Shown: positions 732 through 8,906 of the stretch, one piece after another
Layout: each line of letters opens with the position of its first letter
Position numbering within the stretch: position 1 is the stretch's first letter
Source: a virus
Lineage: Duplodnaviria; Heunggongvirae; Uroviricota; Caudoviricetes
Direction: 5' to 3' (one strand)
Length of the DNA: 8,906 nt
Virus record (IMG/VR): IMGVR_UViG_2690316276_000009
Span: 1 to 8,906 of that record
Notes under the pieces: model-generated
The model's database searches: none
What the model saw: the letters and a program-made list of their open reading frames with translations, nothing else
What the model was told of the DNA's origin: nothing
Made by a program: the position numbers and the translations under genes

Positions 732-808
732 TGGCGCGCTGTACTGGATTCGAACCAGTGACCGATTGCTTAGAAGGCAATTGCTCTGTCCGGCTGAGCT
801 AACAACGC
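732..808 (-). tRNA. tRNA-Arg (anticodon UCU, reads AGA)
   Basis: Minus-strand sequence GCGTTGTTAGCTCAGCCGGACAGAGCAATTGCCTTCTAAGCAATCGGTCACTGGTTCGAATCCAGTACAGCGCGCCA folds by hand as a 77-nt cloverleaf: 7-bp acceptor stem with one G-U pair, D arm GCTC/GAGC, anticodon stem ATTGC/GCAAT with loop CTTCTAA (anticodon TCT), T arm ACTGG-TTCGAAT-CCAGT, encoded CCA. Lambdoid and Stx phages are known to carry rare-codon tRNA genes (ileZ/argN/argO) downstream of Q. Confidence 0.85.
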
Positions 809-1554: not shown

Positions 1555-2409
1555 TTATGACGAATTTACCACAGATTCCGGAAAAATCAACCTAGTTACC
1601 TTTTTTAACTGCCGCTCAGCCCATGCTTCTTCAATATCAAACCGGGTCACCAGCGCATCATAGAATTTCTTAACTGTTTTTTCCCATGACGCGCGTGTTA
1701 TCTGGTTTGTCACCTCGCATATAGCATTAAATGCCTCCGTTGATGGTAGTCTTTCATAGCCACGACCACCACAACGCTGGCAGTCTCTGATAACAGGCAT
1801 ACCACGTTTTACCGACTCTTCACGATGAATGGCGACACCACGCCCACGGCAATCCTTACAGGCGGTGGAAACCTCACCCTTTCCGCCACACTCCGGACAG
1901 GCAACTTTTACCACCTCCCTGACTTTTTTCCATTCTTCCCAGTAAGACGGATACACACCTTTCGTACACTTTGCCCATACCGGCGGCTTACCATCCGGAT
2001 ACTGGACCTTGTTTGTAAAAACTACGCTTTCAATAAATTTTTCCCCATAGCAACAAGGGCACTGCTTTTTACTCGCTGCGCTGCGGGCATAATCCTCAAA
2101 AGCGTACGAAGCCATAATGCGCATCACTACCGGTTTTATTTCTGCCGGAAGTTTTCTCAACGCCGCCACACGATCGCACCGACTGAGTGCATAATCTGCC
2201 AGTAATTCTGTTGCCCGCGCCCTGTCATTCATACTGATGCCCATTTTCCCCAGGAACGCAGAAAACCCCATCTCAGCCCGATTCTGTGTCATGCCCTGCG
2301 CGGCCATCACATCAGTGATACTCAGCGCATCTTTTGACGTTGAGGCCGATGCATCGGTCAGGCAAGGGGATTTTGGGGAGTAGTATTTCGGTAAATCTTC
2401 CAGTTTCAT
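1555..2409 (-). CDS. Q: antitermination protein Q (lambda Q family), 284 aa, with expanded Cys-rich zinc-binding region
   Basis: The N-terminus (YSPKSP...TDVMAAQGM...ND) and C-terminus (KTVKKFYDALV) align by eye with lambda Q (YSPKSP...TDVMAAMGM...; VKPLYDALV). The central region carries CPCC plus three CxxCxGxG-type motifs (CPECGGKG, CKDCRGRG, CQRCGGRG). The start ATG overlaps the rusA stop (ATGA). Confidence 0.85.
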   Translation of the reverse strand: MKLEDLPKYYSPKSPCLTDASASTSKDALSITDVMAAQGMTQNRAEMGFSAFLGKMGISMNDRARATELLADYALSRCDRVAALRKLPAEIKPVVMRIMASYAFEDYARSAASKKQCPCCYGEKFIESVVFTNKVQYPDGKPPVWAKCTKGVYPSYWEEWKKVREVVKVACPECGGKGEVSTACKDCRGRGVAIHREESVKRGMPVIRDCQRCGGRGYERLPSTEAFNAICEVTNQITRASWEKTVKKFYDALVTRFDIEEAWAERQLKKVTRLIFPESVVNSS

Positions 2410-2780
2410 TTTTTGACCTGCTCTTCATGCATTATGGGGTAAATCTTCACCCCCAGACGTCCACCAGATACTGGCTGACCACGAACGATATTGATTTCAT
2501 CAAACTGCTCATCGTCCATTAACACTCCCGCATGTGTCAGTGCATCCAGTGGTGCTTTCAGGATATTGTCCAGGTCACGACGGCGCTTATCCGGTGGCTC
2601 TGCAATAATCTTTATCGCCAGTCTTCCGGACAGGCTTAATTTCAGTCGCTGCTGACGGACAATAAGCGCCACATCCCGGCGATAACGCTCACCGGCTTTT
2701 GATACAAAATATGTGTTGTCACGACGTCGCCAGTAAGTATTCACCGTCGGCGGATAAGGTAAAATAAACTCATGGCGCAT
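2406..2780 (-). CDS. rusA: crossover junction endodeoxyribonuclease RusA (Holliday junction resolvase), 124 aa
   Basis: PDKRRRDLDNILKAPLDALTHAGVLMDDEQF matches the conserved RusA catalytic region (RRRDLDN ... D). Sits immediately upstream of Q as in DLP12-type and other lambdoid prophages. Stop overlaps the Q start. Confidence 0.85.
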   Translation of the reverse strand: MRHEFILPYPPTVNTYWRRRDNTYFVSKAGERYRRDVALIVRQQRLKLSLSGRLAIKIIAEPPDKRRRDLDNILKAPLDALTHAGVLMDDEQFDEINIVRGQPVSGGRLGVKIYPIMHEEQVKK

Positions 2781-2881
2781 CAGCGCAGCACCTCCTGCAC
2801 CAGTTTTTCAAACTTTCCGACTCTGGTTTCCAGCTCTGCCACACAGTCCACCAGCTCATCTACTGCTTTCTGTGCGCGATG
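2780..2881 (-). pseudogene. 3' fragment of the small ORF found intact at 3999-4241, cut at the N at 2882
   Basis: 2780-2881 is identical to 3999-4100; the match ends exactly at the N. Confidence 0.6.
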
Positions 2882-2882
2882 N

Positions 2883-3628
2883 AATTTCTTAACTGTTTTT
2901 TCCCATGACGCGCGTGTTATCTGGTTTGTCACCTCGCATATAGCATTAAATGCCTCCGTTGATGGTAGTCTTTCATAGCCACGACCACCACAACGCTGGC
3001 AGTCTCTGATAACAGGCATACCACGTTTTACCGACTCTTCACGATGAATGGCGACACCACGCCCACGGCAATCCTTACAGGCGGTGGAAACCTCACCCTT
3101 TCCGCCACACTCCGGACAGGCAACTTTTACCACCTCCCTGACTTTTTTCCATTCTTCCCAGTAAGACGGATACACACCTTTCGTACACTTTGCCCATACC
3201 GGCGGCTTACCATCCGGATACTGGATCTTGTTTGTAAAAACCTCGCTTTCAATAAATTTTTTTCCGTGACAGCAGGGGCACTGTTTTTTGCTCGCCGCGC
3301 TACGGGCATAATCTTCAAACGCATACGAAGCCATAATACGCATCACTGCCGGTTTTATTTCTGCCGGGAGTTTTCTTAACGCCGCCACGCGATCACACCG
3401 ACTGAGTGCATATTCTGTCAGCAATTCTGTTGCCCGCTCTCTGTCATTCATACTAATGCCCATTTTCCCAAGGAACGCAGAAACCCCCATCTCAGCCCGA
3501 TTCTGTGTCATGCCCTGCGCGGCCATCACATCAGTGATACTCAGCGCATCTTTTGACGTTGAGGCCGATGCATCGGTCAGGCAAGGGGATTTTGGGGAGT
3601 AGTATTTCGGTAAATCTTCCAGTTTCAT
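2883..3628 (-). pseudogene. antitermination protein Q paralogue, 3' end missing and fused in frame across the N at 2882 to the preceding fragment
   Basis: The track ORF 2780-3628 encodes Q residues 1-250 and then ...KTVKKXHRAQKAVDELVDCVAELETRVGKFEKLVQEVLR, which is the C-terminus of the 3999-4256 ORF. The true Q C-terminus (FYDALVTRF...) is absent. Confidence 0.65.
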
Positions 3629-3999
3629 TTTTTGACCTGCTCTTCATGCATTATGGGGTAAATCTTCACCCCCAGACGTCCACCAGATACTGGCTGACCA
3701 CGAACGATATTGATTTCATCAAACTGCTCATCGTCCATTAACACTCCCGCATGTGTCAGTGCATCCAGTGGTGCTTTCAGGATATTGTCCAGGTCACGAC
3801 GGCGCTTATCCGGTGGCTCTGCAATAATCTTTATCGCCAGTCTTCCGGACAGGCTTAATTTCAGTCGCTGCTGACGGACAATAAGCGCCACATCCCGGCG
3901 ATAACGCTCACCGGCTTTTGATACAAAATATGTGTTGTCACGACGTCGCCAGTAAGTATTCACCGTCGGCGGATAAGGTAAAATAAACTCATGGCGCAT
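3625..3999 (-). CDS. rusA: RusA Holliday junction resolvase (second copy, protein identical to 2406-2780)
   Basis: Protein identical to the 2406-2780 copy; same overlap with the downstream Q start. Confidence 0.85.
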   Translation of the reverse strand: MRHEFILPYPPTVNTYWRRRDNTYFVSKAGERYRRDVALIVRQQRLKLSLSGRLAIKIIAEPPDKRRRDLDNILKAPLDALTHAGVLMDDEQFDEINIVRGQPVSGGRLGVKIYPIMHEEQVKK

Positions 4000-4241
4000 C
4001 AGCGCAGCACCTCCTGCACCAGTTTTTCAAACTTTCCGACTCTGGTTTCCAGCTCTGCCACACAGTCCACCAGCTCATCTACTGCTTTCTGTGCGCGATG
4101 CTTCGCCTGCATCAGTTCCCGAAGCGCGGGTACCATATCTTTACGGATAGCGTCTTTTGTTATGCCCGTTTTTTCGAGTTGTTCAGCATGACGCAGCATT
4201 TCCTGCGCGTGTTTACGCAATTGTTCAGGGGTAAAAGTCAT
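3999..4241 (-). CDS. small phage protein, hypothetical (80 aa from the ATG at 4241; track ORF 85 aa from TTG at 4256)
   Basis: First codon of the track ORF is TTG; the first ATG gives MTFTPEQLRKHAQEML.... The N-terminus resembles those of the 55-aa and 114-aa ORFs at 8142-8650. Stop overlaps the rusA start by 1 bp. Confidence 0.5.
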   Translation of the reverse strand: MTFTPEQLRKHAQEMLRHAEQLEKTGITKDAIRKDMVPALRELMQAKHRAQKAVDELVDCVAELETRVGKFEKLVQEVLR

Positions 4242-4467
4242 TGTCTGGTTGTTCAAAAGAAACGCTCCATCTTACTGCTGTCAGTTCGTTTATTACTGTA
4301 TCTGCGCGGATTGCCGGGCTTCATGGGAGTGGAAAGCACCCGTGCACTTTCCTGGTCCACAGGCAGAAAATGTCCGTAGACTGGCCCCCTGAATCTCCAG
4401 ACAACCAGTATCACTTAAATAAGTGATAGTCTTAATACTAGTTTTTAGACTAGTCATTGGAGTACAG

Positions 4468-4833
4468 ATGATTGATGTCTTAGGGCCGGAGAAACGCAGA
4501 CGGCGTACCACACAGGAAAAGATCGCAATTGTTCAGCAGAGCTTTGAACCGGGGATGACGGTCTCCCTCGTTGCCCGGCAACATGGTGTAGCAGCCAGCC
4601 AGTTATTTCTCTGGCGTAAGCAATACCAGGAAGGAAGTCTTACTGCTGTCGCCGCCGGAGAACAGGTTGTTCCTGCCTCTGAACTTGCTGCCGCCATGAA
4701 GCAGATTAAAGAACTCCAGCGCCTGCTCGGCAAGAAAACGATGGAAAATGAACTCCTCAAAGAAGCCGTTGAATATGGACGGGCAAAAAAGTGGATAGCG
4801 CACGCGCCCTTATTGCCCGGGGATGGGGAGTAA
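4468..4833 (+). CDS. insC: IS2 transposase OrfA (InsC), 121 aa
   Basis: [54 protein letters not shown]... is the IS2 InsC sequence. The A6G slippery heptamer AAAAAAG at 4785-4791 is the known -1 frameshift site that produces the InsCD fusion. Confidence 0.85.
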
Positions 4834-5197
4834 GCTTAGTCAGCCGTTGTCTCCGGGTGTCGCGTGCGCAGTTGCACGTCATTCTCAGACGAACCGATGA
4901 CTGGATGGATGGCCGCCGCAGTCGTCACACTGATGATACGGATGTGCTTCTCCGTATACACCATGTTATCGGAGAGCTGCCCACGTATGGTTATCGTCGG
5001 GTATGGGCGCTGCTTCGCAGACAGGCAGAACTTGATGGTATGCCTGCGATCAATGCCAAACGTGTTTACCGGATCATGCGCCAGAATGCGCTGTTGCTTG
5101 AGCGAAAACCTGCTGTACCGCCATCGAAACGGGCACATACAGGCAGAGTGGCCGTGAAAGAAAGCAATCAGCGATGGTGCTCTGACGGGTTCGAGTT
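4791..5197 (+). pseudogene. insD: IS2 transposase OrfB (InsD), N-terminal about 135 codons only
   Basis: [41 protein letters not shown]... matches the InsD N-terminus. The reading frame leaves IS2 sequence at the N at 5198 and continues as the antisense of the Q fragment. Confidence 0.75.
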
Positions 5198-5198
5198 N

Positions 5199-5431
5199 CA
5201 CCGACTGAGTGCATATTCTGTCAGCAATTCTGTTGCCCGCTCTCTGTCATTCATACTAATGCCCATTTTCCCAAGGAACGCAGAAACCCCCATCTCAGCC
5301 CGATTCTGTGTCATGCCCTGCGCGGCCATCACATCAGTGATACTCAGCGCATCTTTCGACGTTGAGGCCGATGCATCAGTCAGGCCGGGGGATTTTGGGG
5401 AGTAGTATTTCGGTAAATCTTCCAGTTTCAT
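5199..5431 (-). pseudogene. antitermination protein Q, N-terminal fragment (about 77 codons), third copy
   Basis: Encodes MKLEDLPKYYSPKSPGLTDASAS...TEYALSR, matching Q copy B except for C16G, then stops being Q at the N at 5198 where IS2 sequence begins. Confidence 0.7.
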
Positions 5432-5808
5432 TTTTTGACCTGCCCTTCAAGCATTATGGGATAAATCTTCACCCCCAGACGTCCACCAGATACTGGCTGA
5501 GCACGAACGATATTGATTTCATCAAACTGCTCATCGTCCATTAGCAACCCCGCATGCGTCAGCGCATCCAGCGGCGCTTTCAGAATATTGTCCAGGTCAC
5601 GGCGGCGCTTATCCGGTGGTTCTGCAATAATTTTTATTGCCAACCTTCCGGACAGGCTTAATTTCAGCCGCTGCTGGCGAACAATAAGCGCCACTGCCCG
5701 GCGATAACGCTCCCCGGCTTTTGATACAAAATATGTGCTGCCACGACGACGCCAGTAAGTGTTCACCGTCGGCGGGTAAGGTAAAACAAATTCTATGCGC
5801 TCGGTCAT
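5428..5808 (-). CDS. rusA: RusA Holliday junction resolvase, divergent paralogue (126 aa)
   Basis: Same RusA core (RRRDLDN...DDEQF) with a different N-terminus (MTERIEFVLPYPP) and several substitutions. Start abuts the stop of the DUF968 gene. Confidence 0.85.
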   Translation of the reverse strand: MTERIEFVLPYPPTVNTYWRRRGSTYFVSKAGERYRRAVALIVRQQRLKLSLSGRLAIKIIAEPPDKRRRDLDNILKAPLDALTHAGLLMDDEQFDEINIVRAQPVSGGRLGVKIYPIMLEGQVKK

Positions 5809-6867
5809 TTATGCTTTCCACTTCAGAACACCCGAATTTCTCGCGTGCATTAAAAAACGAATCAGCAACAACAGCTGACTGCCGTGTTTCTCTTCAAAAT
5901 CTTTTACTCCGGCATGTAGTTCGTTACGGCATTTACGGCATAACGGAATAACAAACAAATCATCAGCCTTTGTTCCCATCCCTCCCAGTCCATGACCAAT
6001 GATGTGATGCGGATCATCTGCCTGATTGCCACACGTCATGCATTTCTGCGTTTTTACCCAGCGCGTGTATACAGGCATCTCTTCCCGTTGTGATTTCTGG
6101 CGCTGGAGATACTGAGCCGGTGACTCCGGATCAACGGCAATGCTGACCACCGTCTTTTCCTGTGGTGGGTTCTGTTGCTGGTGGACGTGAGGCAGTAACG
6201 CAATATTTTTTGTGCGCTGCTTCAGTATGCTGGTGGCTGTCTGCTCTCCCGGTATGATGTCGCTTTCACTGTACACAGAGCGAATTTTTTCCGCACGCAA
6301 CCCCAGCGAACGACGTAATACCGCTTCCGGTAGCGCGTCCGCCACCTGATTGCGGACCGCCCACCAGGATAATTCAGCCAGAGATAATTCACGCTCCTGC
6401 GTACCGCTTATTGCGTGACCGATGACGTCAATCATCCATGCTGACAGGTTTTGATGAGCAAGTTGCTCGAGTGATTCGGATGTCTGGTCACGCAGCTGGT
6501 TGTCGCAGTGCCAGCACAACACCATTGCGCCGGTACCATAACGGTGAATGACGGTTTCGCTGTGATGATAATCGCCGTGTGGCCACTGGCAGGATTTAAT
6601 ATGGCGCAACAGCCAGTCAGACAATGCACCAGCACCACCAGCAGCACGAATCACCCGTGCGTTACTGAAAAACGGCAGCAATGTTTTGTCTTCCACCAGC
6701 GGCTGGCGAGCGGCAGGAACGACCCCGGACGGCAGATTACGCATGCTTTTTGGTTCCGGCTCCACCAGTATTCTGCCGTTATGGAATGCTGACATTGATT
6801 CACGGCCTGGCTTAACGATAACCAGACCGAGTTCCGGTACCAGAACAGGTCGAAGTAATACCCGCAC
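5809..6867 (-). CDS. DUF968-type phage protein with C-terminal HNH-like Cys/His motif (YdfU-like), 352 aa from GTG
   Basis: GTG start preceded by GGAGGT at good spacing; alternative ATG at 6795. C-terminus CMTCGNQADDPHHIIGHGLGG...LCRKCRNELH looks like an HNH/zinc-finger nuclease motif. Position upstream of the Q-side genes parallels ydfU next to quuQ in the Qin prophage. Family assignment from recall, not a search. Confidence 0.6.
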   Translation of the reverse strand: MRVLLRPVLVPELGLVIVKPGRESMSAFHNGRILVEPEPKSMRNLPSGVVPAARQPLVEDKTLLPFFSNARVIRAAGGAGALSDWLLRHIKSCQWPHGDYHHSETVIHRYGTGAMVLCWHCDNQLRDQTSESLEQLAHQNLSAWMIDVIGHAISGTQERELSLAELSWWAVRNQVADALPEAVLRRSLGLRAEKIRSVYSESDIIPGEQTATSILKQRTKNIALLPHVHQQQNPPQEKTVVSIAVDPESPAQYLQRQKSQREEMPVYTRWVKTQKCMTCGNQADDPHHIIGHGLGGMGTKADDLFVIPLCRKCRNELHAGVKDFEEKHGSQLLLLIRFLMHARNSGVLKWKA

Positions 6868-7213: not shown

Positions 7214-7474
7214 TCACTCATCTTCAAAAGCAGAAAAACCAGCCTTAATCCCAGCTTCTTTCAGAGACGGCAACGATGTGACAAATTCATTTGCACGCGA
7301 AATAAAACCATCCGTCACAAGCCCATCCACAAAATGAATTAACGCAGCTCCACTCTTCCTTTGTTGAGACTGTAAACATTTAATACGGCAGTGGCTGACA
7401 ATAGCGCCATTCTCAACGCGCACAGTATAGAGGCCATCTTCACTAAAAATTTCACGTAATTCTTCGATTTTCAT
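7214..7474 (-). CDS. hypothetical protein (86 aa from ATG; track ORF starts 1 codon earlier at TTG)
   Basis: ATG preceded by GGAAGGA. Lies between hok and the DUF968 gene, where rem lies in Qin; that is a synteny-only guess and I do not recognise the sequence. Confidence 0.4.
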   Translation of the reverse strand: MKIEELREIFSEDGLYTVRVENGAIVSHCRIKCLQSQQRKSGAALIHFVDGLVTDGFISRANEFVTSLPSLKEAGIKAGFSAFEDE

Positions 7475-7595
7475 CAACAGAATCCTTCCAGATAAATAGC
7501 ACTCCCCTGTTCGGGGTCCATCCCTCTTCTCCCTGCGCGCTACTTAAGTATTTTTGATTCTATTCCGGCACCATCTAAAACTTCAAACGCGTTGA

Positions 7596-7626
7596 AAATA
7601 AAAACAAAAACCCGCCGAAGCGGGTT
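7596..7626 (-). terminator. rho-independent terminator about 70 nt downstream of hok
   Basis: Minus strand: AACCCGC-TTCG-GCGGGTT (UUCG tetraloop) followed by TTTTTGTTTTTATTTT. Confidence 0.6.
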
Positions 7627-7694
7627 AAGTGTGGGTGCATTGAGGATGCCTGACCCATCAGAGGTGGCGAGGGATTTCTCCCCCGCCTGGTCTC

Positions 7695-7850
7695 TTACTC
7701 CTCAGGTTCGTAAGCTGTGAAGACAGCGACCTCCGTCTGGCCGGTTCGAATTCGTACCTCGCAGAGGTCTTTCCTCGTTACCAGTGCCGTCACTATGACG
7801 GTTAAACAGATGACGATCAGGGCGATTAACATCGCCTTTTGCTGCTTCAT
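7695..7850 (-). CDS. hokD: Hok/Gef-family membrane toxin, HokD/RelF-like (51 aa)
   Basis: MKQQKAMLIALIVICLTVIVTALVTRKDLCEVRIRTGQTEVAVFTAYEPEE matches HokD/RelF as I recall it and has the Hok signature (hydrophobic helix, then TRK.LCE.R). AAGGAG lies 9 nt before this ATG. The track ORF extends 19 codons upstream in frame to an ATG at 7907. Confidence 0.85.
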   Translation of the reverse strand: MKQQKAMLIALIVICLTVIVTALVTRKDLCEVRIRTGQTEVAVFTAYEPEE

Positions 7851-8141
7851 AGCCTGCTTCTCCTTGCCTTTCGGCACGTAAGAGGCTAACCTAGATTTGC
7901 CGTTCATAGATTGAGCCTCAGATTAATGTTAAGCGTCTTGCCGGACGCGTAATGTTAACTGGGGCTTTTCTCTATCTGCCTTTTGGTGTTCATGCCTGAG
8001 ACAGATAGCCTCAAGCACCCGCTGCAATTCTACTTAACTCTCCTTTTCCCGCAAACCGTTTTTATCCCCAGCGGCAAATCGAATACACCACCAGCGCCAC
8101 CGCCATCGCAATTCCTACCGTTGTTAATGCTTCAGGCCAGG

Positions 8142-8486
8142 TCATCGTAAAATATCCTCCACGCTTATCAGTCCGTTCCGCTCCAGATAACTCATCGCCT
8201 TATCCGGTAATTTGCAGTCTGGCTTCGCTTTTCTCAGTTGCCAGGTTAACTGCTTTACCAGCATGGTTAACTCATCGACCAGACGCTGATATCCCACTGG
8301 TTTGTATTCATGCAATTTACCGGCTGGCTCTGCTGCCAGCGATACCAGTGCGATTTCCAGAACAGCAATATCCATCTTATATGTGCGGATGATGTCATGG
8401 TCGATTGTGCCCGGTATGCACAGTCTCTGTGCTTCAATAGTCTCCTCTGCGTGAGCTATTAACTGCTCTCTGGTAAAAGTCGTCAT
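8142..8486 (-). CDS. hypothetical protein (114 aa), downstream member of a coupled pair
   Basis: ATG overlaps the stop of the upstream 55-aa ORF (ATGA). N-terminus MTTFTREQL... and the internal [10 protein letters not shown] parallel the 55-aa partner (MTTITKERI..., [10 protein letters not shown]). No family recognised. Confidence 0.5.
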
Positions 8487-8660: not shown

Positions 8661-8906
8661 TTAACCCGCAGTGCTTTCAACTGATGAGGGGAACAAAATC
8701 TTTTCATCAAACCCTGCATTCATATCATGAACAGCAACACACCAATCCATCGACGAACGATTATCAAGAGCCTCCATGATTTCATCCATGCGGCGTAGGT
8801 CATACAGGTAAATGCTTTTATCGCCAATGGTGTAAAAGCCAATTTTTTTCGGTGATGGATGAGGTGTACTGGCAATAGCGGACACTACCATTTGTTCTTT
8901 TTTTAA
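8661..8906 (-). CDS. hypothetical protein, 5'-partial (frame open to the window edge)
   Basis: Track ORF 8661-8891 has no in-frame stop between 8891 and the window end, so the gene probably starts outside the window. Stop TAA at 8661-8663, just before the Shine-Dalgarno of the 55-aa ORF. Confidence 0.35.
   Translation of the reverse strand, partial: LKKEQMVVSAIASTPHPSPKKIGFYTIGDKSIYLYDLRRMDEIMEALDNRSSMDWCVAVHDMNAGFDEKILFPSSVESTAG

Follow-up and report, generated by a model that had tools for sequence, protein, structure and literature searches.

The window, a stretch of 8,906 nt, carries on its minus strand a hok toxin gene at positions 7850–7695 (51 codons and a stop; ATG at 7850–7848, stop codon at 7697–7695). 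Its product, MKQQKAMLIALIVICLTVIVTALVTRKDLCEVRIRTGQTEVAVFTAYEPEE, corresponds to the last 51 codons of a 70-aa frame in the ORF list, matches the Pfam family HOK_GEF (PF01848; 81.6 bits, E = 3e-23, cut-off 22), and aligns with HokD of Escherichia coli K-12 with 51 residues out of 51 identical, the two coding regions differing by a single, synonymous base; hence the assignment to the HokD/RelF type in the original prediction, made from the sequence alone, is correct. The strong Shine–Dalgarno sequence seen there is AAGGAG at 7865–7860 (minus strand), 9 nt upstream of the hok ATG, and the 19-codon in-frame upstream extension to an ATG at 7907 yields the mok reading frame (7907–7695, minus strand; 70 codons in the ORF list), which is in frame with hok, overlaps it fully, and matches the annotated mokW of phage 933W in its position and in its C-terminal 51 codons. 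The mok Shine–Dalgarno sequence, GAGG at 7919–7916 (minus strand), is located 8 nt upstream of the mok AUG, and both it and the start codon lie inside the target (7899–7969) of the putative antisense RNA, Sok. Downstream of hok, the terminator scan identifies an intrinsic terminator on the minus strand (AACCCGC-UUCG-GCGGGUU followed by a T-run, 7626–7599, with the stem at 7626–7609), 69 nt past the stop codon, close to the distance first noted for it; in the alignment it is kept in K-12 and in E. coli GF4. An isrK-like match on the hok 3′ UTR (7605–7686; 25.7 bits, below the gathering score of 50) was judged to reflect a generic hairpin-plus-terminator resemblance and rejected, as were further sub-threshold matches in the permissive Rfam scan.

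The Rfam scan of the whole window produces one strong match in the region, to RF01794 (“sok”), at 7845–8020 on the minus strand (112.4 bits, with a gathering score of 59; E = 1.3e-25), spanning model positions 1–157 of 157. Reading along the hok-sense strand up to the hok start codon, RF01794 amounts to a model of the hok mRNA leader, and the complement of that leader includes Sok. By homology, position 1 of the model places the putative 5′ end of hok mRNA at 8020; with the 3′ end in the T-run of the terminator, the full-length transcript would span 8020–7599 on the minus strand (approximately 417–422 nt), and the leader, from 8020 to the hok ATG at 7850, would be 170 nt long. The leader and transcript features are far beyond chance, as seen both from the E-value of the Rfam match and from the minimum free energy of the predicted transcript (8020–7604, 417 nt), which is –168.9 kcal/mol, z = –6.5 versus dinucleotide shuffles, MFE predictions for an RNA of this length being indicative only.

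The transcript contains the complete set of fold-back elements, all on the minus strand. The translational activator tac (GGGUGCUUGAGG, 8020–8009) is predicted to pair with the fold-back inhibition element fbi (CCUCAAUGCACCC, 7645–7633) in the full-length mRNA, and with the upstream complementary box ucb (anti-SD of mok; AAGCCCC, 7967–7961) after 3′ truncation; the tac/ucb pairing is a stem of the Rfam consensus. Between tac and ucb is a conserved 5′ hairpin (8008–7972; stem 8008–7999 with 7981–7972), which is the second helix of the consensus and is present in all folds; it accounts for the inverted repeat CTATCTG...CAGATAG that had been noticed in the leader and is indeed real. The downstream complementary box dcb (CCUC, 7885–7882) belongs to the third helix of the consensus.

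In the MFE fold of the full-length transcript tac and fbi form 12 base pairs with one bulge and pair probabilities of 0.90–1.0, and this pairing is more stable than those of 297 out of 300 shuffled 5′ ends (3/300 did as well), while the mok Shine–Dalgarno region is sequestered by ucb positions 7966–7961. If fbi is removed in silico (3′ end at 7647–7656), tac positions 8020–8013 pair with ucb 7967–7961, and the mok Shine–Dalgarno sequence pairs with dcb 7885–7882 inside the antisense-target hairpin, the latter pairing appearing only in the 3′-truncated fold and not in the full-length one. Refolding upon the loss of fbi towards tac/ucb and mok-SD/dcb is the published model for plasmid R1 (PMC9841398). 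For mRNAs ending in silico at 7644 or 7661 other alternative pairings between the 5′ and 3′ parts are predicted, so the predicted switch depends on where the trimming stops. Moreover, the isolated 176-nt leader can also fold as a 5′ hairpin with tac paired to the sequence immediately downstream, the type of metastable structure proposed for nascent hok transcripts (PMC9841398). Both checks proposed initially, folding of the minus strand and comparison with covariance models, are thus positive, with the fold-back elements behaving in silico like those of R1.

For comparison we used eight other hok loci, anchored by their RF01794 matches: those of 933W and E. coli GF4, two from P1-like or other E. 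coli plasmids, three from F-type or IncN plasmids of other genera, and one a chromosomal hokC. In six of these eight, as well as in the window, the first 16 nt of the mRNA have a strong complement 43–54 nt past the hok stop codon, and at most 7/300 shuffled 5′ ends equalled the observed tac/fbi stability. Moreover, tac and fbi covary, with GGGUGC/GCACCC in loci of the hokD/W type versus GGCGC/GCGCC in those of the plasmid R1 type, that is, with a compensatory U-A to C-G change. The complementarity is not significant in two of the eight compared loci (L005 and L009); since in both of them IS421 just downstream of hok displaces fbi, they were not counted as evidence against the pairing.

The putative hok promoter (8054–8027, minus strand) consists of a weak –35-like hexamer TTGCGG (8054–8049; 3/6 matches), a 16-nt spacer and the –10 hexamer TAGAAT (8032–8027). 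A TAnAAT hexamer is found 6–7 nt upstream of the Rfam-anchored mRNA 5′ end in 9/9 hok loci, the DNA further upstream being unrelated, and the –10 hexamer is nearly invariant across 69 unique IMG/VR loci. A consensus scan of positions 7400–8300 for sigma-70 promoters and terminators called neither the hok nor the sok promoter, its only calls being the hok terminator and, at 7586–7557, an unrelated site resembling a promoter; the hok promoter was missed as its –35 hexamer matches the consensus in 3/6 positions. The evidence for promoters therefore comes from positional conservation, and that of the –10 hexamer in 9/9 loci argues for a dedicated hok promoter.

The interval of about 230 bp between hok and the preceding gene, initially described as a leader, is present, but it does not form a single leader: it contains a conserved 27-codon ORF at 8145–8062 (minus strand), located between the preceding 114-aa gene and the putative hok promoter, then this promoter-like region, and then the 170-nt leader proper. 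The upstream ORFs at 8891–8062 are co-oriented with hok, with no terminator predicted in between, and those of 114, 55 and 76 aa match neither RelB/RelE nor any other Pfam family. No sign of control by the small upstream ORFs was seen, and the putative promoter of the locus itself separates them from hok.

On the opposite, plus strand, a putative Sok antisense RNA of 71 nt (7899–7969) aligns with the annotated sokW misc_RNA of 933W, being identical to it, position for position, in 64 nt out of 71, with all differences in the first 10 nt; its 5′ end is placed by this homology and should be regarded as provisional. Spanning the mok Shine–Dalgarno sequence and AUG, the segment is predicted to leave its 5′ tail single-stranded and to form a long hairpin followed by a U-tract (–32.9 kcal/mol, z = –5.5); the terminator hairpin carries a 16-nt insertion compared to the Rfam consensus. 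The putative sok promoter (7864–7892, plus strand) comprises the –35 hexamer TTGCCT (7864–7869), a 17-nt spacer and the –10 hexamer TAACCT (7887–7892; 3/6 matches), so that the sok start would fall 7 nt downstream of the –10 hexamer. Both hexamers are identical in 933W and lie inside a block (7846–7892) that also takes in the hok Shine–Dalgarno sequence and is common to most of the 1639 matching plasmid records, with approximately 87% identity among the plasmid matches listed. The plus-strand search for a promoter and terminator pair, suggested as a further check, succeeded in part: promoter-like hexamers are present, and a hairpin with a U-tract is recognized via the sokW alignment, but the consensus scan of 7400–8300 called neither the promoter nor any plus-strand terminator for Sok.

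Taken together, the full-length RF01794 match, tac, fbi, ucb and dcb, and the Sok homologue bear out the apparently complete transcript context of the original prediction. The latter left undecided whether the gene is controlled by an antisense RNA, by the upstream small ORFs or by read-through, and the evidence supports antisense control by Sok with the full fold-back apparatus.

The state of hokD in E. coli K-12 is different. With the 546-nt query used in all distribution searches, K-12 derivatives match at query positions 278–546 only, that is, from window position 7864, 14 nt before the hok ATG; in the K-12 annotation relB-relE ends 71 nt upstream of hokD, and in the alignment the K-12 sequence upstream of the breakpoint is unrelated to the window. 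The K-12 locus shares with the window the Hok protein, the 3′ UTR, fbi and the terminator, and lacks the promoter, tac, ucb, the Sok gene, the mok start and dcb, all present in the window; the sok promoter is absent from the region of homology except for its first base, and no RF01794 match is found at the K-12 hokD locus. The earlier statement that K-12 hokD is devoid of the mok/sok control elements thus proves accurate, and its relBEF-type arrangement, with relB-relE upstream and the leader, the mok start and sok lost, is not that of the window. The possibility, raised in the original prediction, that fold-back elements would be missing and hok would simply be a third cistron, as in relBEF, is contradicted by the presence of these elements and of the Sok homologue.

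Downstream of the gene the order in the window is hok-rem-92-aa ORF-DUF968(ydfU)-RusA-Q. The series rem, small ORF, DUF968/ydfU and then antiterminator Q is common to the window, the K-12 Qin prophage and GF4, whereas RusA between ydfU and the antiterminator is found in the window and GF4, unlike K-12. The truncated homology in K-12 and the shared downstream synteny imply that the window holds an untruncated, ancestor-type hokD, and we consider the locus, from sequence comparison, to be the ancestral form of K-12 hokD (relF), residing in an E. coli prophage that is lambdoid and Qin-like. The truncation of an ancestral 70-codon hokD by relBE has already been published (PMC6379469), and hokD of K-12 shares a transcript with relBE (PMC5120126). 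The prophage surrounding the cassette looks damaged: a Q-like gene carries an IS2-like insertion, and the RusA/Q module is duplicated.

The closest characterised relative is the hokW-sokW locus of the Stx2 phage 933W and of Sp5, a Sakai prophage, which is 91.7% identical to the window over 95% of the query and, like the window, belongs to a lambdoid phage. In both, a 27-codon ORF, the promoter, tac, the Sok target, mok, hok and fbi follow one another in this order, mok has 70 codons and Sok 71 nt, and the GenBank record of 933W annotates mokW, hokW and the 71-nt sokW antisense RNA. The two loci differ in four C-terminal residues of Hok (47/51 identical) and largely differ in the first ~10 nt of Sok, those pairing with mok codons 2–5; the 933W copy has no UUCG terminator after fbi, and its downstream neighbour genes are not those of the window. 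Experiments have established hokW-sokW as a toxin-antitoxin system, in which sokW acts from its own promoter and its antitoxin activity depends in part on RNase III and Hfq (PMC8621323).

The architecture and the predicted folding pathway of the window are also those of plasmid R1 hok/sok (parB) and related loci of F-type plasmids (PMC9841398), with tac/fbi, tac/ucb and mok-SD/dcb pairings and a cis-antisense Sok over the mok start in common. The differences are the carrier (prophage versus plasmid) and the compensating changes in tac and fbi relative to R1-type loci; HokW, four residues away from the Hok of the window, is 44% identical to R1 Hok (PMC8621323). While mok of the window is in frame with hok, several of the plasmid loci compared (L006 and L007) either have no upstream in-frame ATG or have it at another position. 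In the chromosomal hokC/mokC (gef) of E. coli, mok is, as in the window, an in-frame N-terminal extension (69 aa), tac has the same sequence, and RF01794 scores 119.8 bits; this locus resides at a different chromosomal site, and in the hokC example IS421 is inserted just downstream and there is no fbi complement, whereas the window copy is uninterrupted. A preprint names HokD/RelF among the hok homologs studied in detail (bioRxiv 10.1101/2025.08.07.668861).

The locus is of a common, previously described kind. A match to the query is present in 4942 of 5426 complete E. coli genomes, with at least 80% query coverage in 3435/5426, at a median of two and a maximum of 11 places per matching genome; moreover, 83 phage records match, mostly of Stx-converting and other Escherichia phages. 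From IMG/VR we retained 80 contigs, all encoding the identical Hok protein, of which 69 unique sequences were compared. The tac sequence is present in 77 contigs out of 80, and two are of the K-12 type.

Among the sampled phage loci the transcript varies most in the segment 7910–7896, which covers mok codons 2–5 and the target of the Sok 5′ tail. In the MAFFT alignment it has 16 variants in the 69 unique sequences, with an entropy of 0.66 bits per column versus 0.1–0.4 in the rest of the leader, this comparison being valid only within the untranslated leader, as the loci were picked by protein identity and the low variability of the coding region is an artefact of that selection. None of the 16 variants has lost the mok ATG, and in the sampled transcript comparison the window differs from 933W almost only in this segment. 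An exact-pattern scan with the Sok-tail variant of the window, applied to one genome per species, yields a single match, in a 3.3-kb scaffold assigned to a Collinsella MAG, which is probably mis-binned enterobacterial phage DNA. The variability of the segment may tentatively be ascribed to diversifying selection for mutually orthogonal Sok specificities among co-resident lambdoid prophages, an explanation we regard as rather doubtful; if true, it would mean that each co-resident prophage enforces its own retention or lysis timing without cross-protection. The same pattern could arise if a hairpin loop and the initial mok codons were under relaxed constraint.

We conclude with high confidence that a Qin-like lambdoid E. 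coli prophage carries here a complete cassette of the hok/mok/sok type I toxin-antitoxin family, presumably acting by the classical mechanism. The sequence elements, their conservation and covariation, and the predicted alternative pairings are observed in this analysis; transcription starts, 3′ processing, RNase III cleavage, toxicity, the trigger and the biological role we infer with the R1 paradigm as a model. By this analogy, the weak promoter with the –10 hexamer at 8032–8027 would produce a hok mRNA of about 420 nt, in which tac is paired with fbi and ucb masks the mok Shine–Dalgarno sequence, so that the full-length form would be neither translated nor bound by Sok. Slow trimming of the 3′ end would strip off fbi, releasing tac to pair with ucb and placing the mok Shine–Dalgarno sequence, together with dcb, in the antisense-target hairpin. 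The trimmed mRNA would become translatable, mok first and hok by translational coupling, and would at the same time become the target of Sok, an unstable 71-nt RNA from the opposite strand (7899–7969) covering the mok Shine–Dalgarno sequence and AUG and presumably directing RNase III cleavage, as it does in R1 and hokW. Once Sok synthesis stops, Hok would be made and would depolarise the inner membrane; the triggers may be loss of the element, a block of transcription, or prophage induction, the latter shown for hokW-sokW.

The least certain part of this scheme is the role of the cassette, which could be prophage retention, help in lysis upon induction, or abortive infection. It is quite possible, if not what we would expect, that the cassette works mainly in host lysis and phage release upon induction, with retention or phage defence being secondary. 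When the Sp5 prophage is induced, sokW RNA disappears and HokW accumulates, about 1 h before endolysin, and deletion of hokW-sokW halves phage release (PMC8621323). The position of hok in the window would suit such a role: the gene is placed in the early-right region, ahead of Q, and is read in the same direction as the genes that lead to Q, so that induced read-through would run head-on into sok transcription, and such a collision would be compatible with the disappearance of sokW after induction. On the other hand, the effect has been reported from a single phage, the change in phage yield is two-fold, the window prophage may not be inducible given the IS2-like insertion in its Q-like gene, and the roles are not mutually exclusive.

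It is improbable that the cassette, although intact in structure, is silent and has no killing or regulatory activity in its host, as a remnant in decay comparable to several chromosomal hok loci. The damage seen in the surrounding prophage would agree with decay, and structural completeness is no proof of activity, as intact chromosomal hokA, hokB and hokC are reported to show no post-segregational killing (quoted in bioRxiv 10.1101/2025.08.07.668861). However, no IS element, frameshift or lost element is found within 7599–8054, the close relative hokW-sokW is active (PMC8621323), and the retention of tac and of the mok ATG across the IMG/VR loci argues for purifying selection on the module.

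It is very improbable that hok is a mere downstream cistron of the upstream prophage operon, expressed by read-through without RNA control of its own, as in K-12 relBEF: the co-orientation with the upstream ORFs without an intervening predicted terminator and the precedent of K-12 co-transcription would agree with it, and read-through could plausibly contribute as well when the prophage is induced, but all R1-type control elements are present and conserved, the –10 box keeps its position before the mRNA 5′ end despite unrelated upstream genes, a Sok homologue is encoded on the opposite strand, and the upstream ORFs have no Pfam match, to RelB/RelE or to any other family.

The complete hok/mok/sok cassette is thus an already known kind of element, and its importance beyond correct annotation is small. 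Automatic annotation labels such loci as “hokD” only, omitting mok, Sok and the mRNA elements, E. coli GF4 being an example. This label suggests the crippled K-12 arrangement, while most E. coli genomes carry in their prophages a complete, probably active cassette, and recognition of the full module helps in interpreting prophage stability, the timing of lysis, and the counts of type I toxins.

Among the 69 unique phage loci, all encoding an identical Hok, the segment of the hok transcript with the highest variability is 7896-7910 (–), which corresponds to the first ~12 nt of the antisense RNA Sok (7899-7910, plus strand). Sixteen variants of this segment are present in these loci, with the mok ATG kept in all of them, and the differences between the hok transcripts of the window and phage 933W are almost confined to it. 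The segment may set the specificity of Sok. Among species-representative genomes, the exact variant of the window was found only in JAIHTM010000277.1, a short scaffold (3262 bp) binned as a Collinsella MAG, which is probably mis-binned enterobacterial prophage DNA.

The 3' end of the hok mRNA also differs between loci: in the window, the E. coli GF4 prophage and K-12 a UUCG terminator follows the fbi element, whereas in the 933W-type loci fbi is kept and the terminator is missing. The latter arrangement is observed in 933W itself (about 3010-3030 of the locus) and in 37 of the 80 IMG/VR loci. As the sequence of these loci diverges from that of the window, GF4 and K-12 starting a few nucleotides 3' of fbi, their mRNA 3' ends must form differently. 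The hok 3' UTR of the window has an isrK-like Rfam match (7605-7686, minus strand), which is sub-threshold (25.7 bits vs. the gathering score of 50); a genuine isrK, accompanied by DicF and C4 RNAs, is located at another place in the related GF4 prophage (1194-1668 of the GF4 sequence compared). Just 3' of the hok terminator, a promoter-like site TTGAAG-18-TAGAAT (9/12) is observed at 7557-7586 (–), upstream of a rem homologue at 7477-7214.

In two further comparison loci, plasmid pS163-2.4 (1031-1360) and hokC of E. coli 2018-02-2CC (868-1413), the IS4-like element IS421 lies just 3' of the hok stop codon, and no fbi partner for tac was found in either of them. This arrangement parallels the IS-inactivated hok loci described in K-12.

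Elsewhere in the window, region 1555-5810 contains a tandem 1219-bp duplication of a module formed by RusA and a Q-like antiterminator, with about 97-100% identity between the copies. An IS2-like element, whose ORFs at 4423-5405 resemble orfA and orfB, interrupts a third, incomplete copy of the module. Several ORF translations include runs of X where the sequence is N-masked or has gaps, at approximately 850-900, 2880 and 5190. Downstream of the Q-like genes, a tRNA-Arg gene (anticodon TCT; 732-808, minus strand) adjoins a DNA-methyltransferase-like ORF fragment. In E. coli GF4, tRNA genes for Ile and Lys likewise lie 3' of Q, a location typical of Stx-type lambdoid prophages.

Upstream of hok lies a 27-codon ORF (8062-8145, minus strand), whose start codon overlaps the stop codon of a 114-aa ORF within the sequence ATGA and whose end is 8 nt upstream of the putative hok –35 box. 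The predicted product of this ORF is hydrophobic and has no match in Pfam. Counterparts with amino-acid substitutions are present in GF4 (MSWPEAFTTVG...) and 933W (MTWPEAFANVGTVMAVVLVVYSICRWR), being annotated in neither record. This ORF may be genuine and encode a small membrane protein in lambdoid phages.
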